This document shows, piece by piece, positions 27,285-46,766 of a stretch of 64,000 bases of DNA. The notes under the pieces were generated by a model. It did no database searches, had not been told where the DNA came from, and was given only the letters and a program-made list of their open reading frames with translations. The stretch comes from Candidatus Parcubacteria bacterium. Lineage in GTDB: Bacteria; Patescibacteriota; Minisyncoccia; Sungbacterales; SURF-37. Every line of letters starts with the position of its first letter. Position 1 is the stretch's first letter. The position numbers were made by a program, and so were the translations under genes. The stretch lies in contig QZJO01000007.1 in NCBI GenBank assembly GCA_003599755.1, positions 41,221 to 105,220 of the forward strand, given 5' to 3'.

Positions 27285-27303
27285 TTCTTATCTCCGCGAA
27301 TCG

Positions 27304-27339: not shown

Positions 27340-27353
27340 ATGCACACACTCTC

Positions 27354-30655: not shown

Positions 30656-31472
30656 ATCCCGCCTCCCACGCCACTCTGCCGCGCCCCGCACGCCCCGCCT
30701 TGGCCAGCATTTTTTGGCCTCGCCCGCGGCGCTGGCGATGATTCTCAAAGCTGCGGGCCGCGACTCGCAAGGAACGGTGTTGGAAATCGGACCGGGCCGC
30801 GGCGTATTGACGCTGCCATTGGCCGAGCGCTTCGGCGCGGTGATTGCCGTAGAAAAAGACGAACGGCTCGCCGCGACCCTCGATGCAATACTCAAAGAAC
30901 GAAAGATCGCCAATGTCCGTTTGCATGCCGGCGACATCCTTGATCTTTTTCCCAAGCAACTTAACCTTCCGGATCACTATGCGGTAGTCGCGAACATCCC
31001 GTACTATCTGACCGGACGGTTACTGCGCGTGCTCCTCGAATCGCCTGCGCGCCCCAAGCGCATGGTGCTTTTGGTGCAGCGCGAAGTCGCCGAACGCATG
31101 GTCGCCAAACCGCCGCACATGAATCTTCTGGCATTATCCGTGCAGGCCTACGGCAGTCCACATATCGTGGCAGAAATACCCTCGACCGCATTTTCTCCGC
31201 CGCCGAGTGTAGCATCGGCAATTATCGAAGTACGGGAAATCTCGAACGACTTTTTTACGCATCAGGCCGTCCCGCCAGAGAAGTTTTTCTCGCTTCTCCG
31301 AGCGGCTTTTTCCGGCAAGCGAAAAATGCTCATCAACTCGCTTGCAAAACCTCTCGGCGGTAAAGATCGCGCGCGGGCGCTCCTCGGGGAATCGAAGCTC
31401 GCCGCAAACAAGCGCCCGGAAGAACTCTCGCTAAACGACTGGATCACGCTCGCAAGAATCGCATCCCATTGA
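30648..31472 (+). CDS. rsmA: 16S rRNA (adenine1518/1519-N6)-dimethyltransferase
   Basis: ..LGQHFLASPAALAMILKAAG..VLEIGPGRGVLT..ANIPYYLTG; ATG overlaps the last codons of uvrD. Confidence 0.85.
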   Translation: MNRSRLPRHSAAPRTPRLGQHFLASPAALAMILKAAGRDSQGTVLEIGPGRGVLTLPLAERFGAVIAVEKDERLAATLDAILKERKIANVRLHAGDILDLFPKQLNLPDHYAVVANIPYYLTGRLLRVLLESPARPKRMVLLVQREVAERMVAKPPHMNLLALSVQAYGSPHIVAEIPSTAFSPPPSVASAIIEVREISNDFFTHQAVPPEKFFSLLRAAFSGKRKMLINSLAKPLGGKDRARALLGESKLAANKRPEELSLNDWITLARIASH

Positions 31473-32696
31473 CTACCCGCAGCCGCAGATGCCGACGGGA
31501 TCCCAAATCAACGGCCGCGAACCTTCTCCGCAGAGCTCGAAGCAGCCAATAGGGACGCCGCAGATGCGGCCAAAACAACACGGTGTAGGAAAATTGGCAC
31601 CTACTGGGCCGCCGGCGCCCTCGACAAAACAAATCGCCGGCCTAATACAGTATGTCGGACCGCACGCCGCGTTTGCCACGCCGACCATAAAAAAATCCCC
31701 GATCAATCTGAATCCAGCGATCAAATGCCGTGAAAGTACGAGGCGGTTATCGGACGGCGCTTGCGAACTCGATTGGCCGCGGAGGATTGCATCAAGATCA
31801 TACCCTTGCAGCCGCAAGACCTCTCTGAATTCATCGAGGGCCTCTTCGGGCGTGACCGCATGATGGGAATCATTGGAGAATACACCCTCCTGAATGGCCT
31901 TGATGGTCTGCGCTTCGCGAAGCTTGAACTCGTACGAAGCAGAAAATACCTGGTCGGCAGCCTCCCGGGAAATTTCATACGCCTGGGTATCAACGGCACC
32001 CTGATCGCGCAGATATCGGAGCAGCGTATCGCTCGCTGTCTTGACCTCCGCTTCCGTGTGAAGGGGCAAGACATCATTTGGCGCGATGACGCCCTCGCTT
32101 ACCAAGGAACCCTGCGCCGCGCGGAGCGCGTCCAAGTACACAACCGGATAAAGGAGCTCGAAAATTTCTCGATCGGTCAGCGGCGCAGACCCGTCGGCTG
32201 GCCCCGGCGCCAAGAGTATGCCATCCGTATTGCGCGGACCGGTGAACACCGGGGTTTCGGGTATCGACACGCCGAGCGCAAGCGCGCGCTGTTGGACTGA
32301 AAAGAAATCGAACTGCCCGATAATCGGCTGCTGCGAAAGCGGGGAAGTGACCGATCCCTGCGATGAGGGCGGCGCGGCAATCGGCACGGGAATAACGGGC
32401 AAATCGGGCAAAACCGGGGAATCTTCGAGCGAAATTGATCCGGCCGCGAGGGGCGCAAGCTCTCCGGGTAGCCGGGGAGCTTGGATATTTGGGTCATTCA
32501 TGCCCCGCAGCCGGGACTCTGAGACTGCTTGCAGAGGCAATGCGCCGGTTGCGGCCGGCGGAGTGGGACTCTCGTCAGACCTTCCGGAAAAATATACGAC
32601 AAAAAACCCGATGATGGCGCCCGCCAACAGGATGATAGCTACCGCGATGAGCGTTCCCGGACCAATGCGTGACCTCACATCGGTATGGTTGCACAC
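31473..32696 (-). CDS. membrane-anchored secreted protein with a C-terminal 12-Cys domain
   Basis: N-terminal TM helix; Pro-rich linker; C-terminal ~60 aa CGPTYCIRPAICFVEGAGGPVGANFPTPCCFGRICGVPIGCFELCGEGSRPLIWDPVGICGCG. Confidence 0.45.
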   Translation of the reverse strand: MCNHTDVRSRIGPGTLIAVAIILLAGAIIGFFVVYFSGRSDESPTPPAATGALPLQAVSESRLRGMNDPNIQAPRLPGELAPLAAGSISLEDSPVLPDLPVIPVPIAAPPSSQGSVTSPLSQQPIIGQFDFFSVQQRALALGVSIPETPVFTGPRNTDGILLAPGPADGSAPLTDREIFELLYPVVYLDALRAAQGSLVSEGVIAPNDVLPLHTEAEVKTASDTLLRYLRDQGAVDTQAYEISREAADQVFSASYEFKLREAQTIKAIQEGVFSNDSHHAVTPEEALDEFREVLRLQGYDLDAILRGQSSSQAPSDNRLVLSRHLIAGFRLIGDFFMVGVANAACGPTYCIRPAICFVEGAGGPVGANFPTPCCFGRICGVPIGCFELCGEGSRPLIWDPVGICGCG

Positions 32697-32768
32697 TCCG
32701 CACGCCAGCGGACCGCTCGGTTATCCACAGTACGCTCGGAAAAATGCGCAAAATGCTATAATTCGTCT

Positions 32769-33791
32769 ATGGAAATTCCGACGCACCGACGCCGGAAAAC
32801 GTCTGCATGGCGACAGGCGACATTATTCGTGATCGTGCCGCTTCTGGCGGCCGCATCGTTCTTCGGCGTTCGCGCGGCGTTCGGCACGGACGACGAACGC
32901 TATGGATCCAGCCCGCAATCGCTGGCATCGGCGCTCTCCGCAGCAACTCGAAATCCTGCAGCGAATCAGGACAGCGATCAAGACGGCCTTCTGGACTGGC
33001 AAGAAACCGTATATCGGACTGATCCGCAGAATCCCGATACTGATGGCGACGGAACTCTTGACGGCGCGGAAATAAAGGAAGGCCGTGATCCGCTAAAGCC
33101 AGGACCGGATGATCCATTGGAATTCGCGGCAATAAACGCTTCCGGCGGCGCGCCGCCCGACGGAGCAGGCCCGAATCTCACTACGGCATTTTTGTCGCAA
33201 ATAGTTGGCGGTTTTTCAGGAGAGATCGACTCGAACGGTGTGCTTAACGCCGAACAATCGGAGGTCTTGCTATCGGCAGCCGAGACGCTGGATTCGAAGA
33301 GCGCCCTCGGCATCCCGCAAGCGAGCCGCGGCGAACTGACCCTGACCACCACCGGCGACCCCACGGTTGTTAAGCAATACTTCAACGGCATCGGGACCAT
33401 CTACGCGACCACGTTCCCGTCGTTTTCGCGCAATACCATCGGTATGCTCGAACCGTCGCCCAAAACCGCGTCCGGCGCCGATGCTACGAGTCCGGAAGGC
33501 GTCATCCAAATACTCGACGAGGCAATCCGCGCTGTCAGAGCGCTGCCCGCGCCACAGGCGTTCGGCGATTTTGCAGTTTCGGAACTGAACTATCTTCTCG
33601 CGCTCAAGCGTATTTCCGAAATATTGAAAGACGCCAAAAACGATCCGCTTGCCGGCATTGTCGCGGTAGGAGAATTGCAGGCCCAGACCCAACGGATCGA
33701 AACCGCACGCCGAGAAATGCTAGCCAAACTCCAATCCCAGTCCATTACTTTTGGGGTTGATGAACCTGCCCATGCGTTTTTGAATCCATGA
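32769..33791 (+). CDS. secreted protein with thrombospondin-type-3-like Ca-binding repeats
   Basis: Signal anchor, then DSDQDGLLDWQE / DPQNPDTDGDGTLDGAE DxDxDG repeats; start set at MEIPTHRRRK. Confidence 0.45.
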   Translation: MEIPTHRRRKTSAWRQATLFVIVPLLAAASFFGVRAAFGTDDERYGSSPQSLASALSAATRNPAANQDSDQDGLLDWQETVYRTDPQNPDTDGDGTLDGAEIKEGRDPLKPGPDDPLEFAAINASGGAPPDGAGPNLTTAFLSQIVGGFSGEIDSNGVLNAEQSEVLLSAAETLDSKSALGIPQASRGELTLTTTGDPTVVKQYFNGIGTIYATTFPSFSRNTIGMLEPSPKTASGADATSPEGVIQILDEAIRAVRALPAPQAFGDFAVSELNYLLALKRISEILKDAKNDPLAGIVAVGELQAQTQRIETARREMLAKLQSQSITFGVDEPAHAFLNP

Positions 33792-34678
33792 GCGCCATAC
33801 CTTGGACGAAAATCCAATCAAGCGTCGCGATTCTCCTCATTATCGTGGTGGTCGGTGGAATGATCGTCGTGCCGCCCAAAAAGGCGGAGGCCGTCGTCCC
33901 GACCAACGTTGATTTCAGCCCCAAGGCGATTGCCGAATGGATCCTACAGACCGCCACGGCGATAAAAAACCTCGCCGAAAACGTTCTCCAAACTGGTTTC
34001 CTGAATAGCCTGGTTGTGAAAGAGTACGCGCTGGATCCCGCTGCGTGGCTTATGAAGCTCGTGATCCAGCAGCTGCGCGACATGGCGATTCAATGGATTT
34101 TGACGGGTAACTTCGGCGGCCCGACGTTTTCTCAAGGTATTTTAATCGATCTTCGCAACGCCGTTACTGAGGCGTCCAAAATTTTTGTTTCCAATTTAAC
34201 CGGTATCAACTTCTGTGACGGCTATCCCCCAATTCCCCCCAACGCTTTCTTCAGCTTGGATCTCTCACTGCGCCTTCAATGCTCATTCACCGGAGGGGGC
34301 GCACTTGCGGACTTCAGGAATGGAACTGCGTTCAGTTGGGAAATGGTCGCCAGCGCCCAGGAATCGGCCAATGATCCGTTCAATGCATACGTCGATGCGC
34401 TTTCGGAGAAAATGCGAATGGAAGCCGAAGTGCTTGGCGCGGTTACGCAAGAGCACCTTGCGGGTGGCGGGTTTTACGGCATCCGCGGCGAAGACGGAAA
34501 AATCAAAACCCCGGGCCGCCACATCGCCGATTTTCTCCAAGAAGACATCAACTCAATGTTCCGAGAATTCGACAATGCCGACGAGCTCTCCGAAGTGTTT
34601 GCGGGGGCGATCACATCGATCGTGGATACGTTCGCCTGGAAAATCATCAATGACGGCCTTACTGCCGCGAGCAACTAG
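33788..34678 (+). CDS. hypothetical secreted or membrane-anchored protein
   Basis: ATGA overlap with the previous gene; N-terminal TM helix; no family recognised. Confidence 0.4.
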   Translation: MSAIPWTKIQSSVAILLIIVVVGGMIVVPPKKAEAVVPTNVDFSPKAIAEWILQTATAIKNLAENVLQTGFLNSLVVKEYALDPAAWLMKLVIQQLRDMAIQWILTGNFGGPTFSQGILIDLRNAVTEASKIFVSNLTGINFCDGYPPIPPNAFFSLDLSLRLQCSFTGGGALADFRNGTAFSWEMVASAQESANDPFNAYVDALSEKMRMEAEVLGAVTQEHLAGGGFYGIRGEDGKIKTPGRHIADFLQEDINSMFREFDNADELSEVFAGAITSIVDTFAWKIINDGLTAASN

Positions 34679-34709
34679 CAATTCCATCTACTAATGGACG
34701 TCATCTAGC

Positions 34710-36977
34710 ATGACTCTGTCTAACTCTAGAAAACGAAGGCAGATTGAAATACTCCTTGTCGTATTGATACTTGTTGTGCTTATTGCAGGAATTTACGCGC
34801 CGCCTGCATTCGCGCAAACAACAAAACAGCTTGGACAAATGGGTATACAGGTGCCCGGCGGCGGATCATCGGCGCCACCGCCCGACGTCTTCAGCTGCTC
34901 CTGGTGGTCACACGGCTTCGCGTGCGGCGCGTATCGAATACTGGACTCGCTGAGCGACTTTGTTACTTCATACTTCGTTCGGCTCGCGGCATATATATTT
35001 GATACGTTCCTCCGCTTCGCACTTTTGGACATCAGCCAGACCACGATCGTCAAGGTGGGAAGCTCGATTGCAGTAGCCACGGCAAATTTATTCTTCATCC
35101 TCATTCTCCTTTGGATCGCCATTGCCACGATCTTCGATTGGGCGGATTATTCGGCACGCCAACTTTTGCCGAAACTCATCATCATCGCACTCCTCATCAA
35201 CTTCAGCGTGGCTATCGGCGCGACTATCATCAATCTTTCCAACGGCATCGCGCGCACGTTTTACTGCGTCATCGCGGGAACTTCCACGCTTTGCCCAGCT
35301 AACCCGGGCGGTGACAGCAAATCCATAAGCGAAAACTTTGCCGATATTTCAAAATTCAGATCAGTCGCCGTCATAACGCGGGAGGACTTACCGCCCCCCC
35401 AAGGTACTCCAACGAGCAGCGAAAACGAATTAAAAGGCGCATTCATAGCTATTTTTGCTAAGATGCTACTCGCTCCCGTGCTCATTTTCACACTCCTGGC
35501 CGGTGCGTTTTTCATCCTCGCTCGGCAAATCGCGCTTATGTTCGTGCTCATCCTGAGCCCGCTCGCGTTTTTCTTTTATATATTGCCAGGCACGCGCGGC
35601 ATGAATAGCAGATGGTGGTCCGCGCTCTTCAAATGGAGTTTTTTCCTGCCGGCGTACCTCTTTTTCATCATGCTCACCATTAAGACGGGCGGGGCCATGT
35701 TGACGGCCATCCAAGCAAATCCGAATGATCCCGCATCGGGCACGTTCACTTTATGGATGCAATATCTCGTGCTTATCGGATTGATGATCGGCTCGCTCAT
35801 TGTATCCAATCAGCTTTCCATCTATGGCGCCGGCGCGGTGACGAACCTTGGAAAACGCTGGAGCAAGGGCGCTGGGAAACGCGTAGGATGGAAAGTGGGC
35901 AGCCTTGCTGCGCGCGGAGCTCTCCGCACGCCGGGCGTACGTCAAGCAGTAGGAAGAACTCCGGGACTTAAATATGCCGCGGCACTTGCCATTCAAAAAG
36001 ACGCCGCATATGCCAAGAAAAGGGCGGACTTCTACGCCAAACTGCCTGATGCACAACTTGCTCGCATGCTGCACACGATGAATCCAGGCATTCGACAGCA
36101 AGTATGGAACTCCCTCAAAGAAAGCCGCAGACAAACATTGCGCGGCATCGCACCGGATCTTGATCAATATGTTACCTCGCCAACATTCGGCCAGCGGATC
36201 CGTTCGAGTATCCTCGGACAGCCGGCAACGCCAGCGCAACAAGCCGCGCAGCGAGCTCTCCAGGAGCGTAATAACCGAATTGTCGCTGCGGCCATCACGC
36301 ATTTGCCGCAGAACATCCGAACGGCTGTTGAAGCAGGCATGCGCGAAGCCATGCAAAGCCTTCCGGAGAATGTAACCGTCGCTCAGGCCGTGGGCGCTGC
36401 GGAAGCATCGGCTCTTGAGGCAGCTCGCCGCGCATTTCCCGATTCTCCGGAAGTGGAAGAACGCATTCGTGAAGAATTCCGACGCCAGCAGGATGCTATC
36501 CGCGCCAGCGTAGAAACAGCCATGCATCCCGAGCGTCCGGCACGCAACGAGGCCATCTATACGCAGGTTGCGCCGCTCATCATGCAGCACCCGGCTATCC
36601 AAAATCTGCCAAACGACGTCCGCATTTCCGTTTCGCTCGCCGTGGAACGTTCTATCCGCGCCCTTCCCGCCAATGCAACACCGGAGATGGCAGCAGCCGC
36701 GATCGAGCAGGCGGTTCAGAGCGCCGTAGCCGCGCAGCCGCCTGCGCTCCGGCAAGCCGGAGAAGACGCGGTTCGCGCAACGCGCGAACAGATGGATCGA
36801 ATCCGTCAGGCAATCAACACCGCGCTGCGGACATTCCAAGAAAGCCAGCGCGCACGCTCCACAACCCCGCGTCCTAGACAGGCGCCCGCTGACTACGTTG
36901 CGGCTTACGAAGAACGTATTGAGGATCTCGAAAGCCGACTCGGCGGCCTCGAGGAGCGACAAGAAGGCGCTTCATGA
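34710..36977 (+). CDS. VirB6/TrbL-like polytopic membrane protein with a long hydrophilic C-terminal extension
   Basis: Signal peptide, ~8 TM helices in the first 400 aa, then a ~350-aa Ala/Arg/Gln-rich helical tail; size and topology resemble Gram-positive VirB6 analogues. Confidence 0.45.
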   Translation: MTLSNSRKRRQIEILLVVLILVVLIAGIYAPPAFAQTTKQLGQMGIQVPGGGSSAPPPDVFSCSWWSHGFACGAYRILDSLSDFVTSYFVRLAAYIFDTFLRFALLDISQTTIVKVGSSIAVATANLFFILILLWIAIATIFDWADYSARQLLPKLIIIALLINFSVAIGATIINLSNGIARTFYCVIAGTSTLCPANPGGDSKSISENFADISKFRSVAVITREDLPPPQGTPTSSENELKGAFIAIFAKMLLAPVLIFTLLAGAFFILARQIALMFVLILSPLAFFFYILPGTRGMNSRWWSALFKWSFFLPAYLFFIMLTIKTGGAMLTAIQANPNDPASGTFTLWMQYLVLIGLMIGSLIVSNQLSIYGAGAVTNLGKRWSKGAGKRVGWKVGSLAARGALRTPGVRQAVGRTPGLKYAAALAIQKDAAYAKKRADFYAKLPDAQLARMLHTMNPGIRQQVWNSLKESRRQTLRGIAPDLDQYVTSPTFGQRIRSSILGQPATPAQQAAQRALQERNNRIVAAAITHLPQNIRTAVEAGMREAMQSLPENVTVAQAVGAAEASALEAARRAFPDSPEVEERIREEFRRQQDAIRASVETAMHPERPARNEAIYTQVAPLIMQHPAIQNLPNDVRISVSLAVERSIRALPANATPEMAAAAIEQAVQSAVAAQPPALRQAGEDAVRATREQMDRIRQAINTALRTFQESQRARSTTPRPRQAPADYVAAYEERIEDLESRLGGLEERQEGAS

Positions 36978-38509
36978 GCATACATATCGGAGAACAACTT
37001 TCTCTGTGGGAGCGGACATTACCGGATGAAATCCGGGATATTGTTTCCTCCATGCCCCTTGAAGCCGCAATTACTACGATTAGCCAGCGCTATCAATTCT
37101 CGCCCGAAATGACATCGGCCTTAGTAACGGAGATCGGCGGTTTCGTGACCGGCACGACATCGGCCCGCGAATTTCTCTCTCACCTGATTGAGCTTAACCA
37201 TGGAGACACGCACGCGACCACTGCATTCACCCGCCTGCTCCTCGCAGAAATTTTGATTCCCCTGCGCACTGCAATGCGTCAACGCCTTGTGCGCCAAGGC
37301 CCCAAGCCCTGGGGGGCGAAGTCACTTACAAAAGCGCCCCCACCCCACGTGGCGCCGCCAGCTGTTGCCCCGCCGAAGCCCGCAACCCCTCCGTCGCCAG
37401 CTCGAATTCCTCCGCCCCCGCCACCCCCACTGGCGCCGCAGCCCGCCGCCCCCGCGCCGCGGCCGATTATCATGCCGCCGGTCGGCGCCGCGCCCCATGC
37501 AGCGGCCGACCCCACCGAGGAAACCATCACCAAATATTATCGCGACCTGCCGCCCGTGGTGCGCGATGCCATGCGTGGCATTCCGATCACCCGGATCCTG
37601 TACGACATCGGCCGCGAGCACCAGTTGACCGTTGAACAAACCGGCAAGATGGCCGACGCGGTCATGCAGTTTGTCGCCGGCAAAGCGAATCAAGACGCAT
37701 TCTTGGACACACTCCTTGATATCTTCGGCGGCTTCCGCCAGAAATCCGCGGCCGCATCACAGGAAATCAATACCAAGATTTTTTCACCGATCCGCAAAGC
37801 GCTCAAAACCACGACGCTCGAATCGCTGCATGCCGAACCGCCGACAAAGTCCGCGCCGGCAGCTGCCAAGCCCGGAGAACCGTCCGTACCGACGGCGTCT
37901 CCCGCGCCTCATCCCAAACCGTCTCCTTCGACGGATTCGACCCCTTCGACGGGCTCAGGGCAAACACGCTCACCAGAAGCAAGCTTCCCTCGGCCCGAGC
38001 TCGGGACGAAGGCAGGGCAAGCGCCGCCGGTCGTGCCCGCCCGCCCGGCGGTACCACCGATTCCACCGCCGCCTGCGGTGAGTCGCGTCGAACCACCGAC
38101 CGCGCCGTCGCCAGCGCCAAAACTCCAAACCCCGCCTCCCGCAACACCCAAGCCGTCTGCCCCGAGCCGAGTCGAGGGGCCGCGCGAGCCCGAGCCGTGG
38201 ATCATCTATCCTTTGCGTACGCCGACGCCGCGGCCGGTTTCTCCGTCTGATACAGAAACTCCTGCCGCGCCCGCCCCGCAGCCGGCCGCATCCCCGCAAC
38301 CGCCGACGCCGCCTTCGCCCCCGGCGTCTCCGAGCCCGGTGCCGCCTTCGACGGGCTCAGGGCAAACACGCTCACCAGAAGCAAGCTTCCCTCGGCCTGA
38401 GCTCGGGACGAAAGCAGGGCAAGCGCCGCCGAATTTGCCGACCGCGCCCGGTCGCGCGCCCATGCCGCATCGGGACAATGATCCGTATCGGGAAAAACCC
38501 GGCGCCTAA
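36974..38509 (+). CDS. proline-rich repeat protein
   Basis: ATGA overlap with the upstream gene; PxP-rich; contains two near-identical 29-aa repeats PSTGSGQTRSPEASFPRPELGTKAGQAPP. Confidence 0.45.
   Translation: MSIHIGEQLSLWERTLPDEIRDIVSSMPLEAAITTISQRYQFSPEMTSALVTEIGGFVTGTTSAREFLSHLIELNHGDTHATTAFTRLLLAEILIPLRTAMRQRLVRQGPKPWGAKSLTKAPPPHVAPPAVAPPKPATPPSPARIPPPPPPPLAPQPAAPAPRPIIMPPVGAAPHAAADPTEETITKYYRDLPPVVRDAMRGIPITRILYDIGREHQLTVEQTGKMADAVMQFVAGKANQDAFLDTLLDIFGGFRQKSAAASQEINTKIFSPIRKALKTTTLESLHAEPPTKSAPAAAKPGEPSVPTASPAPHPKPSPSTDSTPSTGSGQTRSPEASFPRPELGTKAGQAPPVVPARPAVPPIPPPPAVSRVEPPTAPSPAPKLQTPPPATPKPSAPSRVEGPREPEPWIIYPLRTPTPRPVSPSDTETPAAPAPQPAASPQPPTPPSPPASPSPVPPSTGSGQTRSPEASFPRPELGTKAGQAPPNLPTAPGRAPMPHRDNDPYREKPGA
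37943..38029 (+). repeat. 87-bp direct repeat, copy 1 (within the proline-rich gene)
   Basis: 85/87 identical to 38345-38431. Confidence 0.6.
38345..38431 (+). repeat. 87-bp direct repeat, copy 2
   Basis: 85/87 identical to 37943-38029; both in frame. Confidence 0.6.
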
Positions 38510-38521
38510 TCACGGACATCC

Positions 38522-39082
38522 ATGGCGGCGGCAACCATTCCAGACATCATGAAGGAATTCCAAGTGCCCCAATTCATCACCGTCGAAGACCGCATTGTCG
38601 GCCCGTTTACGCTGCGCCAATTTTTCTTCCTGCTCGGCGGCGCGTCCATTCTGCTCGTGGGCTGGTTTCTTTTGCCCCTGATCGTGTTTTTCCTGCTGGC
38701 GCTGCCCGCCGCAGCCGGCGTCGGCGCGCTTCCGTTTGCGAAAGTGCAGGGCTTGCCGCTTACCACCGTGCTTTCGAGCGCCATGAACTATTACACCCGC
38801 CCGCGCTTGTACGTATGGCGCGCCCTGCCGCCGAAAGGCACGGAACCCAAAGAATCCGCCGCGGCGGCGAAGGAACTCGAACAAGAGAACCAATTGCGCC
38901 GAATGGCCGGGCAGCAGCTGGCCGCGGCGCCGAAACCCGGAAGTACCGACACGACGCTTACCGAAAAGCGCCTCCAGGACCTTGCCTGGAGCTTGGACAT
39001 CAAGGAAACCGTTGAACGCCCGCTTCGCCAAGGCACCGCCTCGCCGACAGGCGGGTCCGGCGAGGCGAGCCGTCCCTCATAA
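38522..39082 (+). CDS. PrgI-like (VirB3 analogue) small membrane protein
   Basis: ATIPDIMKEFQVPQFITVEDRIVGPFTLRQFFFLLGGASILLVGWFLLPLIVFF pattern typical of PrgI/VirB3 proteins encoded just upstream of VirB4. Confidence 0.45.
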   Translation: MAAATIPDIMKEFQVPQFITVEDRIVGPFTLRQFFFLLGGASILLVGWFLLPLIVFFLLALPAAAGVGALPFAKVQGLPLTTVLSSAMNYYTRPRLYVWRALPPKGTEPKESAAAAKELEQENQLRRMAGQQLAAAPKPGSTDTTLTEKRLQDLAWSLDIKETVERPLRQGTASPTGGSGEASRPS

Positions 39083-39084
39083 CC

Positions 39085-39741
39085 ATGGCAACTCCTGCGC
39101 GCAAATCAGCCGTTACCCAGGACTTCGTCCTGATCGAATCCATTCGGGACGGCATTGTCCTTTTGAAAGACGGCGGCCTACGCGCCGTGCTTATGGCATC
39201 GTCCTTAAATTTTGCCTTGAAATCGGAAGAGGAGCAGGACGCGATCGTTTTCCAATACGAAAATTTCCTGAACTCGCTCGACTTTACCGTGCAATTCGTC
39301 GTCCATTCGCGGCGGCTCAATATCCAGCCGTACCTGGATACGCTTGCCGCGCGGCAGAACGAGGAGACGCAGGAACTCTTGCGCGTGCAAATCGCCGAAT
39401 ACATCGAATTCGTTCGTTCGTTCGTGGAACTTTCCGAAGTCGTATCCAAGACGTTTTACATTGTCGTGCCGTTCCAGCCCTCGATCGTCGAACAGCGCGC
39501 GGGACTCTTCACGAAATTCTTCGGCAGCGGAGCTAAAACCGCGGCAAGCGGCGCCGAAGATGATTTCGGCCATTACAAAAATCAGCTCTTGCAGCGCGTG
39601 GAGTCGGTCAGCTTGGGGCTCCGGCGGCTGGGACTGCGCGTCGTCGAACTCAACACCGAAGAGCTGATTGAGCTGTATTACAACATCTTCAATCCGGCCG
39701 AATCGCAGCGCGCGCAGATACCCGCGCAATCGCGCGAATAA
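39085..39741 (+). CDS. VirB4-family ATPase, N-terminal domain (separate reading frame)
   Basis: DGIVLLKDGGLRAVLMASSLNFALKSEEEQDAIVFQYENFLNSLDFTVQFVVHSRRL resembles the N-terminal domain of Gram-positive VirB4 (TraE/PrgJ) proteins; stops 2 nt before the ATPase ORF in a different frame. Confidence 0.45.
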   Translation: MATPARKSAVTQDFVLIESIRDGIVLLKDGGLRAVLMASSLNFALKSEEEQDAIVFQYENFLNSLDFTVQFVVHSRRLNIQPYLDTLAARQNEETQELLRVQIAEYIEFVRSFVELSEVVSKTFYIVVPFQPSIVEQRAGLFTKFFGSGAKTAASGAEDDFGHYKNQLLQRVESVSLGLRRLGLRVVELNTEELIELYYNIFNPAESQRAQIPAQSRE

Positions 39742-39743
39742 CC

Positions 39744-41558
39744 ATGGAATTCCCATCCCTCTTCGGAAAGAAAACCCAACCGGTCGAGGATCTGGCGCCC
39801 GTAGCGCCGGAGCAGATTTACCGCACCGGCGCGGCCACATTGCGCGACGTTATCGCTCCCGCGGCCCTCGAGGTCAATCCGAGCTTTATCCGCCTGGGCG
39901 AGAAATTCGTCCGGACCCTTTTCGTATTCTCGTATCCGCGGTATCTGGCGACCAACTGGTTCTCGCCGATCATCAATCTCGACAAGGTATTCGACATCAC
40001 GTTTTTCATCCATCCGGTGGATACGGCCATCGTTATGCGGCAACTCCGCAAACAGGTGGCGCGCGTGCAATCTCAGATCGCGATGCGCGAAGAAAAAGGG
40101 CAGGTGCGCGATCCACTCCTGGAAACCGCATATCAAGACCTCGAAGATCTGCGCGACCGCCTGCAGCAAGCGCGGGAACGCCTCTTCAATTTCGGCCTTT
40201 ATATTTCGCTCTACGCTTCCAAGGTAGAGGAGCTCGACCGATTGGAGAACGAAATGCGCGCGCTCTTAGAGGCCCGATTGGTCTACGTCAAACCTGCGCT
40301 GTTCCAGCAGGCCGAGGCCTTCCGATCATGCGTGCCGCTCGATACCGACGAGCTGCAGATCAGCACCTACCTCAATTCAGGGCCGGTATCGAGCACGTTT
40401 CCGTTCGTATCGTTCGACCTTACGTCCAACAAGGGGATTCTCTACGGCGTCAACCGCCACAACAACTCGCTCATCCTCTTCGATCGTTGGTCATTACCCA
40501 ATGCCAATTCCGTAACGTTCGCGACGTCCGGTGCGGGCAAAAGCTACGCGATGAAACTCGAGGTTTTACGCTCGCTGATGTTCGGCGTGCACGTCATCAT
40601 CATCGACCCCGAACGCGAATACCAGTATCTGGCCGAAGTGGTCGGCGGAGCGTACTTCAACATCTCGCTGACTTCGCCGAACCACATCAATCCGTTCGAT
40701 CTGCCCGTGCCCCGCGAAGACGAATCGCCGGCCGACGTGCTTCGTTCCAATATCATCAATTTGGTCGGATTTTTCCGGATTCTGCTCGGCGGCCTGACCC
40801 CCGAAGAAGACGCGCTTTTGGACCGCGCCATCACCGAAACATACGCCGCGCGCGACATCACGGCCGAATCCGACTTCGGCGCGATCACGCCGCCCACGCT
40901 TTCGGACCTCGCGCTCGTGGTCGCGAGCACCCAAGGAGGCGAACAGATCGCGACGCGCATCAAGAAATATACCGAGGGCACTTGGTCCGGGTTCTTGAAC
41001 CAGCAGACGAATCTCGATATCCAAAACCGCCTCGTGGTCTTTTCCGTGCGGGATATGGAAGAGGAATTGCGGCCGGTCGCGATGTATATCGTACTCCACT
41101 ACATCTGGAACATCGTGCGCACCGATCTCAAGAAGCGGCTCCTGGTCGTGGACGAGGCCTGGTGGCTCATGCGCACCGAGGACGGCGCATCATTCCTCTA
41201 CGGCATCGCCAAGCGCGCCCGCAAATACTTCCTCGGCCTCGCGACGATCACGCAGGACGTCGCCGATTTCATGGATTCGCCCTACGGCAAGCCGATCGTG
41301 ACGAACTCCTCGCTGCAGCTATTGCTTAAGCAATCACCGGCCACGATCCAGAAAGTCGTCGAGACGTTCAACCTGACCGAAGAAGAAAAATTCCTGCTGT
41401 TGGAATCCGAGGTAGGGGAAGGGATCTTTTTCGCCGGCCTCAAGCACGTAGCGATTAAAATTATCGCGTCCTACAGCGAAGACCAGGTCATCACGTCCGA
41501 CCCGCAGCAATTGATGCTCATCAAAAAGGCGCGCGAAGAATTCGATCAGAAACAATAA
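39744..41558 (+). CDS. VirB4/TrbE/CagE-family conjugal-transfer ATPase (C-terminal 604 aa)
   Basis: RTLFVFSYPRYLATNWFSPII.., Walker A FATSGAGKSYAMKLEV, Walker B LLVVDEAWWLM. Confidence 0.7.
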   Translation: MEFPSLFGKKTQPVEDLAPVAPEQIYRTGAATLRDVIAPAALEVNPSFIRLGEKFVRTLFVFSYPRYLATNWFSPIINLDKVFDITFFIHPVDTAIVMRQLRKQVARVQSQIAMREEKGQVRDPLLETAYQDLEDLRDRLQQARERLFNFGLYISLYASKVEELDRLENEMRALLEARLVYVKPALFQQAEAFRSCVPLDTDELQISTYLNSGPVSSTFPFVSFDLTSNKGILYGVNRHNNSLILFDRWSLPNANSVTFATSGAGKSYAMKLEVLRSLMFGVHVIIIDPEREYQYLAEVVGGAYFNISLTSPNHINPFDLPVPREDESPADVLRSNIINLVGFFRILLGGLTPEEDALLDRAITETYAARDITAESDFGAITPPTLSDLALVVASTQGGEQIATRIKKYTEGTWSGFLNQQTNLDIQNRLVVFSVRDMEEELRPVAMYIVLHYIWNIVRTDLKKRLLVVDEAWWLMRTEDGASFLYGIAKRARKYFLGLATITQDVADFMDSPYGKPIVTNSSLQLLLKQSPATIQKVVETFNLTEEEKFLLLESEVGEGIFFAGLKHVAIKIIASYSEDQVITSDPQQLMLIKKAREEFDQKQ

Positions 41559-41566
41559 ATCTAACC

Positions 41567-42085
41567 ATGGCATCACGCGGGGAAGAAGCACAACGACGAA
41601 TGGCCCTATACGCGGCCCGATATGAAGACCGACAGATCGTCGAGTCAATAAATACGTTCGTCATGAAGGAGGCGAAACGGATCGCCGACAAGTTGAATGA
41701 ACAGATCGAGCGTGGCAACGACGGAGCTGCTTTCACTATCGCCCTTATGCTGGGGTTGCTTAAAGACGGCGTGCTTGATTGGATCCTCGACTTCCTACTC
41801 ATCGGCGAGATCCCTGTAATTGGGCAGATCCCCGGTCTCCTCGTTTCCGGTATAATCATGTACTTCCTTTGGGGCAAAGGCTGGTTCCTTAAATCAAAGA
41901 TACGAGTGATGTATTGGATACTCGGTCTTTTCTTCGACAATCTGCCGCTTTTCAATAATCTGCCGCTCACCACGCTCGTTATCCTCTACGCTTGGCACAA
42001 CGTGCGGAAAGACATGCGTGAAGCCGAAGAAAAAAGGGAGGAATTAGAAACGCAAGTCGGCCGTACACTCCAGGAAGCAGCATGA
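41567..42085 (+). CDS. small membrane protein (3 TM), lower GC
   Basis: Hydrophobic core IALMLGLL..IIMYFLW..LGLFFDNLP; no family recognised. Confidence 0.4.
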   Translation: MASRGEEAQRRMALYAARYEDRQIVESINTFVMKEAKRIADKLNEQIERGNDGAAFTIALMLGLLKDGVLDWILDFLLIGEIPVIGQIPGLLVSGIIMYFLWGKGWFLKSKIRVMYWILGLFFDNLPLFNNLPLTTLVILYAWHNVRKDMREAEEKREELETQVGRTLQEAA

Positions 42086-43398
42086 GGTATACTTATTGCA
42101 CAGGTATGAACCCCGCTCCAGCCATTCGCTCTGTCGCGATCCTCGCAACCGGTTTGCTTGTTGTGGCGGCCTGGTCGCTCGTTGGTGCTCAAACGACCCA
42201 GACGATTCCGCTTTTCACACTCGACATTTCGCCGCTGCCGGTGTTTGCCGGCGACCAAGCGGTCATTACCGTGCTGCCGCAGAACTTCAACACCGCGAGC
42301 ACGACGTTTCAATGGAAATATAATGGCGCGGCGGTGCCGAGCGCGTCGGGAATCGGAAAGAGCCAATACGCGATCGGCACTGCGGCCCAGGGTCCGGAAA
42401 TCATCACGATATCGGTGCTCGTGGACCCCGGCCCCGGATTTCAGCCGCGCGAACTCTCCCAGATCGTTGTCACGGTGCAGCGGCCCGAAGACCCCACCGA
42501 TCTTTTAGGCGCGCTGCAATCGGATTTTTCGCTCGAGCTATCGCCCGAAAGTCCGAACCCCGGCCAAGAAGTGCGCGTCTCGGTCACGAGCTTGGCGTTT
42601 GATCGCGAGCGCGCGAGCTTCCAATGGTCGGTCAACGGCGCGGCGCAGGCCGGCGCAGGTGGCCGCGGCCGCTGGTTTCTTACGCTGCCGCCCGGTCGCG
42701 AGGGAGAATCACGAACCGTGCGCGTGACCGTCACCACGCCGGCCGGCCTGACGCGGACGCAGAGCATCACCGTACAGAGCATTTCCATGCCGCTCTATTG
42801 GTGGACGAATACCGAGGTACCGTATTGGTACAAGGGCAAAGCCCTGCCGACGGCGGCTTCTGAACTATCGGTAGCTGCATTCCCCAACGTTGCCAACGCG
42901 CGGGATCTCGCATACCGCTGGGAACTCAATGACACCATAGCGCCCGCCGCGTCGGGTATCGGCCGCGCCGCGTTTTCCCTGCCGCTTACGCTGCCGATTG
43001 CCGAAAAAATTACGGTCACGGCACAAAACGCGAGCGGTTCATTCCGCAAAACCGGGAGCATCGCATTCGCGCCGCTGCCGCCGCTCGTGCGGGTTTATCC
43101 AAACGATGCGCCGGGCCTGCCTCCGGGAGAAGCCATTGCAACATACGAGGCATCGGCCGGTTCGCCCTATGCGTTTGTCGCGGTTCCGTTCTTTTTCTCG
43201 CGCGCCGCCGGGGGAACGGTGCAATATGCCTGGACGCTCAACGGCCGGCGCATCACCGGCGAATTCGACGAACCGTGGCTCTTTACGCTGCTCTCCGGCC
43301 CCCGCGAACCAAGCACCAACCGACTGTCGGTCGAAATCCGCGATCCGCGCCGCAGCGGCGCGGCAAGCAGTCGCGATCTCACGATCAATCTCCGCTAA
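42082..43398 (+). CDS. secreted protein with four tandem ~100-aa Ig-like repeats
   Basis: Signal peptide; recurring FQW(K/S)xNGAA, YRWELND, YAWTLNG motifs; likely start at the internal MNPAPAIRS. Confidence 0.45.
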   Translation: MRYTYCTGMNPAPAIRSVAILATGLLVVAAWSLVGAQTTQTIPLFTLDISPLPVFAGDQAVITVLPQNFNTASTTFQWKYNGAAVPSASGIGKSQYAIGTAAQGPEIITISVLVDPGPGFQPRELSQIVVTVQRPEDPTDLLGALQSDFSLELSPESPNPGQEVRVSVTSLAFDRERASFQWSVNGAAQAGAGGRGRWFLTLPPGREGESRTVRVTVTTPAGLTRTQSITVQSISMPLYWWTNTEVPYWYKGKALPTAASELSVAAFPNVANARDLAYRWELNDTIAPAASGIGRAAFSLPLTLPIAEKITVTAQNASGSFRKTGSIAFAPLPPLVRVYPNDAPGLPPGEAIATYEASAGSPYAFVAVPFFFSRAAGGTVQYAWTLNGRRITGEFDEPWLFTLLSGPREPSTNRLSVEIRDPRRSGAASSRDLTINLR

Positions 43399-43401
43399 TA
43401 T

Positions 43402-43788
43402 ATGCGAGCGATACTCTTTATAGGCCTTGCGCTGCTCCTCGCTTTTGGGCCGCTTGCTGCGCTTGCCGCCGGGCCTGTCGGCAACCCCGCCCTCACGGGT
43501 CCGCAAGACGTTCAGATCAATACGACCAAGTACCTCGGCAATCTCTACCTCTGGATGCTTGGATTCGTCGGCATTGCCGCGTTTTTCGCGATCGTGTACG
43601 GTGGTGTGCTCTACATGTTCTCCGGCCCAAACATCACGAAAGTTGACCAGGCCAAGACCTGGATCCAAAACGCCATTTTCGGCATTCTGCTTGCCGCCGC
43701 AAGCTACGTGATCCTCAATACCATTAATCCGGCTCTGGTAAATCATAACTTTGATCTCGAAACAATGATCAAGGATGCGCTTAAATAG
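43402..43788 (+). CDS. TrbC/VirB2-like pilin paralog 5
   Basis: Signal peptide MRAILFIGLALLLAFGPLAALAAGP, two TM helices separated by SGPNITKVDQAKTWIQN. Confidence 0.5.
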   Translation: MRAILFIGLALLLAFGPLAALAAGPVGNPALTGPQDVQINTTKYLGNLYLWMLGFVGIAAFFAIVYGGVLYMFSGPNITKVDQAKTWIQNAIFGILLAAASYVILNTINPALVNHNFDLETMIKDALK

Positions 43789-43790
43789 AT

Positions 43791-45029
43791 ATGCTGACGA
43801 ATCGCTGGTTCATTCTCGTTGTCGCGCTCCTCGCCGTTGCCCTCGTCGGCGCCGCGGTATTTTTCATGCTCGGCCGCGGCGACGGAGAAACAGTGAGCGG
43901 CGATGGATTCTTCGGTAATCTGCCGTTTCTCGGCGGCGATAGCGGCACCCCGCCGCCTCCGCCGCCCGTATCCGGTAATGGCAACGGATTCTTCGAGAAC
44001 GGCGATCCGAACGCCAACCTCCGTCCGTTGATCCAGATTATTGACCGGCCCGTGCTCGGCCCCGTGCTCGCCAAGGGAGCCGATGGACTTTTGTATATTG
44101 ATCCGCAAAACGGCCACGTGCTCACCACGGATCTTCTGGGCGATAACGAGCAGAGTATCGTCAGCATCACGGTGCCCGAGCCGTTCGACGCGCGCTGGGC
44201 GCCCGACCGCAGCCGCGTCGTAATTTTTTCGCACGATGCGGGCATCGTGAAAAAATTCCTCGCTGGCGTCGCCACCGGCACGCTCTCGAAATTCCTACCG
44301 CCCGAAATCACGGCAATCGACTGGGCGCCGGATTCGAAACAGATCGCGTACCTCACCCGCCGCGCATCCGACTCGGCGCTCACCGTCGCTGACGCGGCAA
44401 ACCAAAAGCCGGCGGTCGTCTGGACCACGCCGATACCCGATCTCACGGTCGCATGGCTTTCCCGGAATACGATTCTTCTGCCGTCGCGGCCGTCAGGCCT
44501 GGCGCCGAGCGTCGTATTCAGCTTCAATCCCGCCACCAAAGCCGTCGCCCAGCTCGTCCAGGGCGTCAACGGCGCGGTGCTGCAGCCGCTCGCCGGCGGC
44601 ACGGCGTTTCTTTTGTCAGCCGCGGACCAGCGGGGGAATGCCACGCCGGTGACCCGCTATACGCTCGCCGGCGGCACGGCCGCGGCCCTTGGCGTTACCA
44701 CGATCGCGGAAAAATGCGCCTCGAGCGCGGATCAGAAAAAAATCTGGTGCGGCGTGCCGCGCGACGCCATCCCCGCACCCAGTCCCGATACCTGGTACCA
44801 GCGCGCTGCCGGCATTCATGACCGTATCGTCGAAATCGATGTCGCATCCGGCCGCGTGACCACGCTCTTGGACGGCAATCCCGATCTCGATGTCGCGGCA
44901 TTGTTCGCCACGCCCGATAGCCGGTATTTGTTCATCCACGATTGGCGGAGCGGCACCGTATGGCGGCTTGATCTTCTCCCGGCAACGCAATCGGATGAAC
45001 CTGCGGCGACGACCACGCCTGCCTCGTGA
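43791..45029 (+). CDS. membrane-anchored beta-propeller-like (TolB/PD40-like) protein
   Basis: TM anchor, Gly/Pro linker, repeated WAPD..(I/V)A(Y/W) segments. Confidence 0.4.
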   Translation: MLTNRWFILVVALLAVALVGAAVFFMLGRGDGETVSGDGFFGNLPFLGGDSGTPPPPPPVSGNGNGFFENGDPNANLRPLIQIIDRPVLGPVLAKGADGLLYIDPQNGHVLTTDLLGDNEQSIVSITVPEPFDARWAPDRSRVVIFSHDAGIVKKFLAGVATGTLSKFLPPEITAIDWAPDSKQIAYLTRRASDSALTVADAANQKPAVVWTTPIPDLTVAWLSRNTILLPSRPSGLAPSVVFSFNPATKAVAQLVQGVNGAVLQPLAGGTAFLLSAADQRGNATPVTRYTLAGGTAAALGVTTIAEKCASSADQKKIWCGVPRDAIPAPSPDTWYQRAAGIHDRIVEIDVASGRVTTLLDGNPDLDVAALFATPDSRYLFIHDWRSGTVWRLDLLPATQSDEPAATTTPAS

Positions 45030-45092: not shown

Positions 45093-45548
45093 TTAAGGAT
45101 ACGGCTTGATCACGACGCGGCGCGACTCGCCTTCGCCCACGGATTGCGTCGTGATATCGGGATATTCGGCCAACGCCATATGCACGATACGCCGTTCGAA
45201 CGGCGACATGGGCTTGAGCATGATCCCGTTCCGATACAGCCGCACTTTTTTGGCAACGTTTTTCACTTCCGTTTTTAATTCCTCCAGCTGATGGTAACGA
45301 TAGCCGTTTACGTCGAGAAAAAAATTTGGCCGATCGCCGCCGACCTGCCGTTCCGCGAGGCGGCGCAGTAGGTATTCAAGCGCGTAGAGCGTGCGCGCGC
45401 GCGAGCCAATAAGAAAACGCGCCTCGTCGGTGAGGAGGTTTACGTACGGCATGGAAAGATCCGGCAAGGATCGCTCCTCAATGTCCGCGCGGATTCCCAT
45501 CGTGTTGAGAATCCGCTCCAGATGCTCGCGAACTGCGGTTGCGCTCAT
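45093..45548 (-). CDS. khpB: Jag/KhpB RNA-binding protein (KH-like and R3H domains)
   Basis: R3H motif ERRIVHMALAEYPDITTQSVGEGESRRVVIKP; downstream of yidC. Confidence 0.8.
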   Translation of the reverse strand: MSATAVREHLERILNTMGIRADIEERSLPDLSMPYVNLLTDEARFLIGSRARTLYALEYLLRRLAERQVGGDRPNFFLDVNGYRYHQLEELKTEVKNVAKKVRLYRNGIMLKPMSPFERRIVHMALAEYPDITTQSVGEGESRRVVIKPYP

Positions 45549-46257
45549 ACGAAAATCGTCGGTGAATCCACGTCTGCTGTACTATAGCAGCCAGGTTAAA
45601 CGCTGTCCAGGAAAACGCGATCGCCGAGGGCAAGCCGAACGCGATGACGGTAAATACGATCGGGATCACATACATGCCCTGCCAGCGCATCATGCGGCCG
45701 AAATCATCGGTTTTGGTGCCCGGCATCTCGGGCGGCCGCGGCGCAAGATACGTTTGCAAAAATTGGGAAATGCCGGCCGCCAGCGCCATAACCACGTTCG
45801 GTTCGGTAAAATTGATAAGCCCGAATGCGATCGGATTGAACGCGTCGATGGCCGGCAAAAACGAATAGATCAGCGAGGGATCATTGACCGCGATGCCTTT
45901 GGAAAATACCTGGTAGATGCCAATGAATACCGGAATCTGGACCAAAAGCGGCGTCAGGAACGAAAACGGATGCATGCCGTACGACCGGTACAGCGCCATG
46001 GTGGCTTTGGCCTGCTCTTCGCGCTTATCTTTATATTTCGCTTGGATCTCCTTGAGCTTGGCCTGCAATTCCGGCATTACATACTGCGCCCGCGTGCTTT
46101 GCACGATGCTGCGATGCAGCAGCAGCCGCACGGCCACGACGAGCACGAGCGCGGCAAGTCCGATATCGTGATATGGAATTACGCTGTAAAAAAACGCGAG
46201 GCCGTTCAAGAGCGGCCGATAGATAATTTCCGTATACAGCGTGCTGAGGATGCTCAT
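45478..46257 (-). CDS. yidC: membrane protein insertase YidC (short form)
   Basis: MSILSTLYTEIIYRPLLNGLAFFY.. and conserved TM core; start at the ATG that overlaps the rnpA stop (ATGA). Confidence 0.85.
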   Translation of the reverse strand: MSILSTLYTEIIYRPLLNGLAFFYSVIPYHDIGLAALVLVVAVRLLLHRSIVQSTRAQYVMPELQAKLKEIQAKYKDKREEQAKATMALYRSYGMHPFSFLTPLLVQIPVFIGIYQVFSKGIAVNDPSLIYSFLPAIDAFNPIAFGLINFTEPNVVMALAAGISQFLQTYLAPRPPEMPGTKTDDFGRMMRWQGMYVIPIVFTVIAFGLPSAIAFSWTAFNLAAIVQQTWIHRRFSYERNRSSRASGADSQHDGNPRGH

Positions 46258-46628: not shown

Positions 46629-46631
46629 GCG

Positions 46632-46766
46632 CTACGGCGCAAGGCGCGCACGGCCTTTACGCCGGCGCCGCTGCAGCAGGCGGCGGCCGGCTGGCCGGCT
46701 CCGACGCGTTCGAAAGCCATGCACGCGCTTGCGATGAATTTTTTTCGGCTGATACGTTCGCTTCAT
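46632..46766 (-). CDS. rpmH: 50S ribosomal protein L34
   Basis: Manual translation [44 protein letters not shown] (44 aa); absent from the ORF track (shorter than 60 aa). Confidence 0.8.

Follow-up and report, generated by a model that had tools for sequence, protein, structure and literature searches.

A chromosomal type IV secretion system beside the dnaA region of a Parcubacterium: a known system with a subclade-specific set of accessory envelope proteins

A stretch of 64,000 nucleotides of contig QZJO01000007.1 (positions 41,221 to 105,220) from Candidatus Parcubacteria bacterium, hereafter referred to as the window, carries a cluster of eleven plus-strand open reading frames (ORFs) at 32769-45029, packed between ksgA (30540-31472) and the origin-region genes, that encodes a type IV secretion system (T4SS). 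Its core consists of an extended VirB6, a PrgI/VirB3 protein, TrsD plus VirB4, one operon pilin and four array pilins. We consider it probable, at roughly 0.8, that the cluster is a chromosomal Patescibacteria-clade T4SS of Paceibacteria (Parcubacteria/Sungbacteria-like), derived from the MPF_FATA type and repurposed as a host-interface pilus or conduit. The system is real and was read correctly in a preliminary description of the same DNA, but it is not new, since it has already been described between 2023 and 2025 (PMC10633639, PMC12102498); what is left as novel is a set of accessory envelope proteins particular to a subclade.

A Patescibacteria-wide analysis of T4SSs (Quinonero-Coronel et al. 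2025, PMC12102498) described a VirB4 clade related to MPF_FATA, with TrsD as its commonest partner, PrgI/VirB3, VirB6 recognised by hidden Markov model (HMM) in a minority of cases, pilins resembling VirB2, also in arrays, hydrolases of the M23/LysM type that could take the part of VirB1, a type IV coupling protein (T4CP) mostly encoded far from virB4, and almost no relaxases; in Paceibacteria the T4SS was located close to dnaA, dnaN, rnpA, rpmH, and ksgA. Transposon sequencing (Tn-seq) established that the T4SS and its pilins are essential for epibiotic growth in Saccharibacteria (Wang et al. 2023, PMC10633639). In Southlakia, essentiality extends to the T4SS genes and the pilin array but not to the T4CP homologue (PMC10633639, summarised in PMC12102498 and PMC12857230), while comEC is dispensable for viability and its deletion abolishes transformation (PMC12857230). 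The latter source, a FEMS review of 2025, regards this as the first essential T4SS and speculates on the pilus as a conduit. Moreover, a 2026 preprint (10.64898/2026.06.21.733656) reports tubular structures, possibly T4SS pili, at the host interface of one cultivated representative of the Minisyncoccota (Patescibacteria), together with its acquisition of host RNA. The statement in the preliminary description that such machinery is essentially uncharacterised can thus not be upheld, as the Saccharibacteria homologue is essential by Tn-seq and both the repertoire and the dnaA-proximal location have been published. Its structural reading, a relaxase-less Gram-positive-type core of VirB3, VirB4, VirB6, and pilins with a separate T4CP and hydrolase, is borne out by HMM, profile, and synteny evidence, which agree. 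The eleven genes of the cluster, all on the plus strand, are:

g02, 32769-33791, plus strand: signal-anchored TSP3 calcium-binding repeat protein, with a C-terminal domain of about 220 aa without assignment
g03, 33788-34678, plus strand: 296-aa exported protein without family assignment, directly 5' of the VirB6-like gene
g04, 34710-36977, plus strand: extended VirB6/TrbL-like polytopic membrane protein of 755 aa
g05, 36974-38509, plus strand: 511-aa Pro-rich protein without transmembrane (TM) segment
g06, 38522-39082, plus strand: PrgI/VirB3-like membrane protein (Pfam PrgI 9e-10, above the gathering score)
g07, 39085-39741, plus strand: 218-aa TrsD-type protein, homologous to the VirB4 N-terminal domain but encoded on its own
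g08, 39744-41558, plus strand: VirB4 ATPase, comprising the middle and C-terminal P-loop domains
g09, 41567-42085, plus strand: small membrane protein of 172 aa, in which coiled N- and C-terminal stretches flank 2-3 hydrophobic segments
g10, 42082-43398, plus strand: 438-aa membrane-anchored string of four immunoglobulin (Ig)-like beta-sandwich domains
g11, 43402-43788, plus strand: VirB2-like T4SS pilin, fifth such paralogue of the window (PF18895 matched at the gathering score, 6.4e-6)
g12, 43791-45029, plus strand: 412-aa N-terminally membrane-anchored TolB-like (PD40) beta-propeller

Re-derivation of the ORFs returned the eleven same-strand genes at the coordinates given before, including 32769 as the most likely start of the first gene (the longest ORF would begin at 32685). 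The ATGA overlaps that had been mentioned for several junctions number three (33788, 36974, and 42082), and the remaining gaps measure 2-31 nt, an arrangement that points to a single operon. The order of the cluster recurs in 80 other genomes, far more than chance would produce.

The most readily recognised component is VirB4 (g08), which matches P-loop_TraG (1.2e-27), AAA_10, and DUF87 in Pfam, as well as the C-terminal domain of Thermoanaerobacter VirB4 in the Protein Data Bank (PDB 4ag5, 1e-46) and residues 446-734 of R388 TrwK; more than 8000 homologues, of about 600 aa, were found. Upstream of it, g07 matches NCBIfam TrsD (9.7e-9) and Pfam TraC_F_IV (2.8e-4), aligns also to the N-terminal 100-230 positions of the VirB4_plasma, CD1110-family VirB4, and TIGR00929 models, and has orthologues that match the TraC-like family PF26593. 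The TrsD profile returned nothing from PDB or against TrwK, and its homology to the VirB4 N-terminal domain rests on NCBIfam and Pfam. The genes follow each other as PrgI-TrsD-VirB4, with 2-nt gaps between them. What had been called a split VirB4 does consist of two adjacent genes, but these are no product of a break: as g07 matches both TrsD and VirB4 N-termini, the pair represents the arrangement of TrsD plus VirB4; ahead of VirB4, 77/77 loci have a TrsD gene of 205-235 aa (median identity 51%), and VirB4 is about 600 aa long everywhere. The two-gene arrangement is the ancestral and lineage-wide one, known from pGO1-type systems. The polytopic protein g04 has about six hydrophobic segments followed by a hydrophilic helical C-terminal tail of about 380 aa, by which it qualifies as an 'extended VirB6' in the sense of PMC12857230. 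As a single sequence it has no Pfam match; its earlier designation as VirB6/TrbL-like with a long tail is supported by a profile of 40 orthologues, which matches R388 TrwI (VirB6, 7o3v_F) across the TM region with E=5.2e-5, just as the Pfam match of g06 sustains its designation as PrgI/VirB3-like.

Conservation was assessed in 80 loci from species-representative genomes of Sung-, Giovannoni-, Azam-, Nealson-, Portnoy-, Terry-, and Jorgensenbacteria, picked by VirB4 similarity (some counts below are over 81 loci; L-numbers are locus labels). Presence was scored by tblastn of each window protein, and loci with enough flank to judge were considered eligible. PrgI was present in 76/76 and TrsD in 77/77 eligible loci; the other genes scored were the pilin g11 (63/73), the VirB6-like protein (52/56), the Ig string (55/78), the TolB-like propeller (48/69), the TSP3 protein (32/52, always upstream and on the same strand), g03 (20/54), and the Pro-rich g05 (26/70). 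Apart from four pilin matches, all were found on the side of virB4 where they were expected and shared its strand. The accessory proteins are syntenic within the Sung/Giovannoni/Azambacteria subclade, with N-terminal anchors and conserved Cys pairs; the partners without a family are conserved next to VirB4 in relatives, and the preliminary description had named the opposite outcome as one that would speak against it.

The position of the cluster is equally stable. The gene order and the place beside rpmH-rnpA-yidC-jag/dnaA-dnaN recur in L001, L002, and most of the 80 genomes, and in 57 of 60 eligible loci dnaA follows virB4 at a distance of 3.6-12 kb. At NCBI, a protein of 'Candidatus Parcubacteria bacterium' matches the window VirB4 at 100% identity, and the neighbours of the window VirB4 are Sungbacteria and Parcubacteria; across the 80 Paceibacteria genomes VirB4 is 59-83% identical, and its best plasmid-borne relatives, from Actinobacteria and Firmicutes, do not exceed 37% identity. 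VirB4 was more conserved than DnaA in 57/57 genomes (median identity 69% versus 51%) and more conserved than UvrD in 19/19, a comparison mildly biased toward VirB4, the loci being VirB4-selected; this pattern suggests strong purifying selection on VirB4. The GC content of the cluster (0.586) resembles that of its flanks (0.619 and 0.597). The fixed origin-side position, the conservation of VirB4, the matching GC content, and the distant plasmid relatives together show a vertically inherited, strongly constrained core system of the chromosome and not an integrated conjugative element. It is accordingly very improbable that the cluster belongs to an ordinary conjugative element (an integrative and conjugative element or integrated plasmid transferring DNA to cells, with relaxase and oriT outside the window or too divergent): VirB4, TrsD, PrgI, and VirB6 are homologous to plasmid conjugation proteins of Firmicutes and Actinobacteria, a T4CP homologue lies about 12 kb upstream of virB4, and PMC12102498 allows for very divergent relaxases, but the origin-side place has stayed fixed across dozens of species, VirB4 has diverged less than DnaA, the GC content of the cluster matches its flanks, the 64 kb yielded no relaxase, integrase, or repeat boundaries, and all the Patescibacteria genomes surveyed together contained only 109 relaxases, rarely near virB4 (PMC12102498).

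Other elements considered elsewhere in the window are:

12916-13359, about 13353-13691, about 13693-14031, and 14160-14531, plus strand: four tandem VirB2-like pilins
24855-27284, plus strand: VirD4-like T4CP homologue (TrwB_AAD_bind 6.4e-8, T4SS-DNA_transf 2.8e-5, TraG-D_C 6.2e-5)
27354-28454, minus strand: LysM-LysM-M23 peptidoglycan hydrolase (Peptidase_M23 1.2e-27, LysM 6.9e-26)
58748-60430: PilB/T2SSE ATPase

The VirB2-like pilin in the operon and the four paralogues at 12916-14531 had been proposed from the letters, and PF18895 is found in all five, with values of 7e-7 to 3.3e-13 in the array, where two members match TrbC/VirB2 as well. Pairwise identity among the five is 24-54%, and hydropathy indicates a signal peptide and two hydrophobic helices for g11. 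Pfam domains likewise agree with the VirD4-like ATPase and LysM-M23 hydrolase read at 24855-28454 and with PilB at 58748-60430. According to hydropathy, the T4CP homologue has one N-terminal TM segment and a domain of about 370 aa without assignment. Its gene lies 12.5 kb from virB4, and within 10 kb on either side of virB4 no T4CP was encountered among the 81 loci. Immediately ahead of it, a plus-strand ORF of 149 aa (24397-24846) with a Pro-rich centre and no family ends 8 nt before the T4CP gene, and may encode a partner of the coupling protein. The LysM-M23 gene, 4.3 kb upstream of the operon, encodes the sole hydrolase observed, with no SLT or CHAP domain, and is a candidate VirB1 substitute; 16 other Paceibacteria loci have a homologue upstream of virB4 at a distance of no more than 10 kb (13 of them on the minus strand), and in more distant Paceibacteria the homologues lie directly upstream of the cluster. 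Domains of relaxases, VirB9/10/11, and lytic transglycosylases were absent from all ORFs scanned in the window, as had been stated for the relaxase, VirB9/10/11, and a VirB1-type transglycosylase, and no VirB7, integrase, or repeat boundaries were found across the 64 kb.

In this composition the cluster corresponds to the Patescibacteria-clade T4SS of PMC12102498, with TrsD by VirB4, PrgI/VirB3, VirB6, a pilin near virB4, a separate pilin array, a distant T4CP, no relaxase, and an M23/LysM hydrolase, in the same place near dnaA/dnaN/rnpA/rpmH/ksgA; in the core there is no difference. The characters of the clade were all encountered: the VirB4 clade (assigned by identity), TrsD with PrgI, VirB6, pilins, no relaxase within the 64-kb window, an unlinked T4CP, and proximity to dnaA/dnaN. 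Neighbours without assignment are left grey in PMC12102498; those of the window are the TSP3, g03, DPYRE-tailed (g05), g09, Ig, and TolB-like proteins. Southlakia epibionticum (SEML1_0006-0019) has the same run of VirB4, a gene in the TrsD position, PrgI, and extended VirB6-like proteins with ARM/helical tails; PF18895 pilins are present in the cluster and a relaxase is absent in both. It differs by two large VirB6-like proteins, an NTF2-like (VirB8-like) protein, and an in-cluster array of six pilins, whereas in the window a single VirB6 and no recognisable NTF2 protein were seen, one pilin is encoded in the cluster and four in a distant array, and the partners include Ig, TolB-like, and TSP3 proteins.

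The MPF_FATA systems (pGO1/pSK41/pIP501; TrsC/TrsD/TrsE, TraD/TraE) share the TrsD gene upstream of VirB4, the VirB3-like and VirB6-like proteins, and a monoderm architecture without VirB7/9/10/11, and the window VirB4 is closest to Firmicutes/Actinobacteria homologues. In contrast, they are plasmid-borne and have a relaxase, an oriT, a T4CP linked to the cluster, an SLT/CHAP hydrolase within it, VirB8-like proteins, and no VirB2 pilin, whereas the window system is chromosomal with five pilins. Classification as an MPF_FATA conjugative T4SS of the pGO1/pIP501/pCF10 type was rejected, given the lack of a relaxase in the window, the unlinked T4CP, and the five PF18895 pilins. With Agrobacterium VirB and R388 Trw (MPF_T) the cluster shares VirB2-type pilins, the VirB3, VirB4, and VirB6 homologues, and an exported protein (here g03) encoded just 5' of virB6, like VirB5; VirB1, 5, 7, 8, 9, 10, and 11 were not demonstrated in the window.

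The accessory proteins constitute the novel part of the locus: none of g02, g03, g05, g09, g10, and g12 is named in the text of PMC12102498 or in the supplements consulted. The TSP3 repeat protein, the four-module Ig protein, and the beta-propeller of the preliminary description were all recovered, by TSP3_bac (9.3e-6), by AlphaFold2 (AF2) and Foldseek, and by a TolB profile match (7.6e-13), respectively. Its claim that more than half of the components are unrecognisable goes too far at the level of fold, where 8 of the 11 could be placed, and is fair at the level of function. In g02, the TSP3 profile matches the Ca-binding repeats of Bap, and the acidic motif D-x-D-x-D-G is invariant across 28 orthologues. 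The AF2 model of g10 (pLDDT 90.5) consists of a TM helix (14-32) and four beta-sandwiches, for which Foldseek against PDB returned generic tandem Ig/FN3/MG-domain (macroglobulin) strings only; its family comprises 2349 representatives at E<=1e-3, a distant member of which stands in a TrsD-VirB4-small ORF-g10-pilin context. The profile of g12 that matches TolB structures is built on 39 orthologues, in which C309 and C320 are invariant; the orthologue at L002 has a faint PD40 match. In g09, the motifs KDG-x-DW, IPxVG, and FFDNxP are conserved across 14 orthologues; no consistent Pfam match was obtained, and a short ORF of 97-184 aa occupies the g09 position in L001, L002, and L084. One in-frame stop each was observed in the g12 orthologue L049:14362-15567 and the g02 orthologue L058:141-1265, which are either pseudogenes or assembly errors.

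The Pro-rich g05 lacks a signal peptide and has a disordered Pro-rich body. Its family combines a conserved helical domain of about 90 aa with hypervariable Pro-rich linkers and a C-terminal DPYRE(P)xE motif that is invariant in 20 orthologues. In the window the helical domain is doubled, the extra copy being N-terminal, and the gene contains an internal direct repeat of 87 nt (37943-38029 and 38345-38431; 98% identity, 402 nt apart), which encodes one 29-aa peptide twice, has just two copies in the window, and looks like a recent internal duplication.

The exported protein g03 begins with a TM segment or signal anchor; two of its Cys are conserved, as is a GxGF...TPG motif. A jackhmmer search within the loci gave 37 matches of 214-1700 aa, and those checked are encoded directly upstream of the VirB6-like gene. 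In virB operons, virB5 is located just upstream of virB6, and a VirB5-like nature of g03 could be suspected from this position, as a lead only. Matches below the cut-off were obtained for a family member at L036 (DUF4141 3.4e-6, 26.8 bits versus a cut-off of 30) and one at L056 (PF07996, the VirB5 family, E=0.047). Assignment of g03 as a VirB5/TrbJ minor pilin was not adopted, the matches being sub-threshold in single members and the PDB and TrwJ comparisons negative. In Azambacteria, proteins of the g03 family reach 1500-1700 aa upstream of VirB6 (L056:1205-5770, L058:1144-5676, L077:1039-6141), and at L039 the family protein bears a C-terminal Big_7 Ig domain; a conserved N-terminal module of about 300 aa thus appears to carry variable surface extensions. 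A query with the concatenated g03 and g10 alignment returned as homologue only the window's own g10.

In a host-interface pilus or conduit of the kind favoured here, a TrsD/VirB4 hexamer would, by analogy with homologous systems, dock on VirB3 and VirB6 at the membrane and pull pilin subunits from it, by which a pilus or tube would be polymerised through the thin wall, while the LysM-M23 hydrolase would locally open the peptidoglycan. The anchored, extracytoplasmic proteins g02, g03, g10, and g12 could, judging from topology and fold, form a wall-spanning or adhesive scaffold at the pilus base, standing in for the missing VirB5/7/8/9/10 and adhesins. The pilus or conduit would itself be the primary, selectively important product; it would assemble independently of the coupling protein and serve attachment and macromolecule exchange at the host-cell interface instead of conjugative DNA transfer, and the unlinked T4CP may feed optional substrates into it. 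A T4CP-independent pilus or conduit is favoured because the T4CP is unlinked in the window and reportedly non-essential in Southlakia, where the pilins are essential.

Several points weigh against this explanation. The roles of g02, g03, g05, g09, g10, and g12 are drawn from synteny, topology, and fold only, and essentiality was established in Saccharibacteria, which have other accessory genes in their cluster (PMC10633639). For g03, PDB profile searches and hhalign comparisons with R388 TrwJ (VirB5) and TrwG (VirB8) were negative, and an AF2 model from a four-sequence alignment was unusable (pLDDT 32.5). No NTF2-like (VirB8-like) protein was recognised by sequence, and g03 and the C-terminal domain of g02 were beyond modelling. 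The selection bias in the VirB4 rate comparison, mentioned above, belongs to the same list.

Import of host material and effector export are the remaining alternatives. ComB of Helicobacter is a DNA-uptake system that has no relaxase and a T4CP-independent core. The core of the window resembles it by analogy, and a pilus and channel that import host DNA or RNA would supply nucleotides that the cell cannot make, the lineage of the organism being without nucleotide biosynthesis. The acquisition of host RNA and the possible T4SS pili in a cultivated Minisyncoccota representative (10.64898/2026.06.21.733656), together with the speculation on the pilus as an uptake conduit (PMC12857230), are in line with such import. 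In Southlakia, however, deletion of comEC ends transformation and leaves viability unaffected, whereas the T4SS is still essential (PMC12857230); classical DNA uptake is for that reason not the essential role. Furthermore, ComB-type systems have VirB7/9/10, domains of which were not found in the window, so that the system was not classified with the ComB type, and the sequence says nothing on the substrate. On balance, nucleic-acid uptake of this kind is an unlikely account of the system.

Equally unlikely is that the T4CP recruits proteins, possibly g05, which are injected into the host to manipulate or lyse it. Protein export is among the options suggested by Wang et al. (PMC10633639), and the T4CP homologue in the window has a unique N-terminal domain. 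The g05 protein could by its build be such a substrate, as it combines the absence of a signal peptide and TM segment with a disordered Pro-rich body and an invariant C-terminal motif. Such features are typical of C-terminal T4SS secretion signals. Against effector export, the T4CP is unlinked to virB4 in the 81 loci and reportedly non-essential in Southlakia while the T4SS is essential (PMC12102498), g05 was detected in just 26/70 loci, and the cluster encodes no effector-like enzymes.

The gene at the left edge of the cluster is a doubtful member of it:

g01, 31473-32696, minus strand: 407-aa membrane-anchored protein with a Cys-rich C-terminus

Hydropathy places a hydrophobic N-terminal segment at 9-40, and about 12 Cys fall within the last 70 aa; a Pfam search gave no match. 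The gene had been described as convergent with the operon, but is divergent from it, as it is on the minus strand with its start at 32696. It is poorly conserved: tblastn found a relative in just 8 of 81 loci, and among the six of these at which ORFs were extractable one was on the other strand. In the 72-nt divergent promoter region between g01 and g02 a perfect DnaA box, TTATCCACA, is present at 32721-32729; the count of such boxes across the window was not above chance (9 versus 5.5 expected), and promoter and terminator scans yielded sites no commoner than in shuffled sequence.

Within the cluster, the nonamer TAACCATGG (stop, CC, start) forms the PrgI/TrsD, TrsD/VirB4, and VirB4/g09 junctions (39080-39088, 39739-39747, and 41562-41570), and a fourth copy is present at 37195-37203; all four copies in the window are inside the cluster, with 0.15 expected in 64 kb. 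The junctions may reflect translational coupling. The nonamer was not found in the 80 related loci, and is therefore specific to the window genome. On the plus strand, a 553-aa Arg-rich ORF at 39668-41329 lies across virB4 in a different reading frame. With 527 codons, its open run exceeds all 2000 synonymous-codon shuffles (maximum 375), but 25 GC-matched orthologues do not keep the frame open (maximum 227), for which reason it was rejected as a probable non-gene.

The window has a GC content of about 60% and contains housekeeping genes throughout (S1, gyrA, PNPase, uvrD, ksgA, dnaA, dnaN, PBP1, ruvC, and ruvB). The origin-region genes directly downstream of the cluster (45093-49771) are the minus-strand genes listed here, followed by dnaA and dnaN on the plus strand, with the dnaA start 2 kb past the last cluster gene:

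45093-45548, minus strand: jag/R3H
45478-46422, minus strand: yidC
46254-46628, minus strand: rnpA
46632-46766, minus strand: rpmH

These calls are based on R3H, 60KD_IMP, DnaA, and DnaN domains and on the translations of rpmH and rnpA. The longest ORF in this area, at 45391-46737 on the plus strand, is Arg-rich and was discarded as spurious, jag, yidC, and rnpA on the minus strand being the genuine genes there. The plus strand carries most genes to the left of about 49.8 kb and the minus strand most of those to the right, by which transcription converges on dnaN/PBP1. The sign change of GC skew near 50 kb coincides with this flip in gene orientation, and coding strands are C-rich on both sides; since the skew follows gene orientation, it cannot alone locate the origin. 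Finally, a single plus-strand ORF of 596 aa at 16224-18014 joins PCMT (protein-L-isoaspartate O-methyltransferase) and YceG/MltG domains, an unusual fusion.

The Patescibacteria T4SS is a leading candidate for how ultrasmall, biosynthetically crippled bacteria exploit their hosts. The window does not add a new kind of system; it provides a clean Paceibacteria example, with a VirB4 that is more conserved than DnaA. A more speculative idea, which we hold only tentatively, is that g03, the TSP3 protein, the DPYRE-tailed protein, g09, the Ig string, and the propeller form an envelope module specific to Paceibacteria, defining a distinct pilus-forming subclass of monoderm T4SS that taps hosts. If so, this six-protein module would replace VirB5/7/8/9/10 and adhesins, and the tapping of hosts could concern, for example, the acquisition of RNA or nucleotides. 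The co-inherited Ig string, TolB-like propeller, TSP3 protein, g03 family, and DPYRE-tailed protein are in any case candidates for the missing structural parts, and the list of accessory proteins could steer structural work and cryo-electron tomography in the few cultivated relatives.

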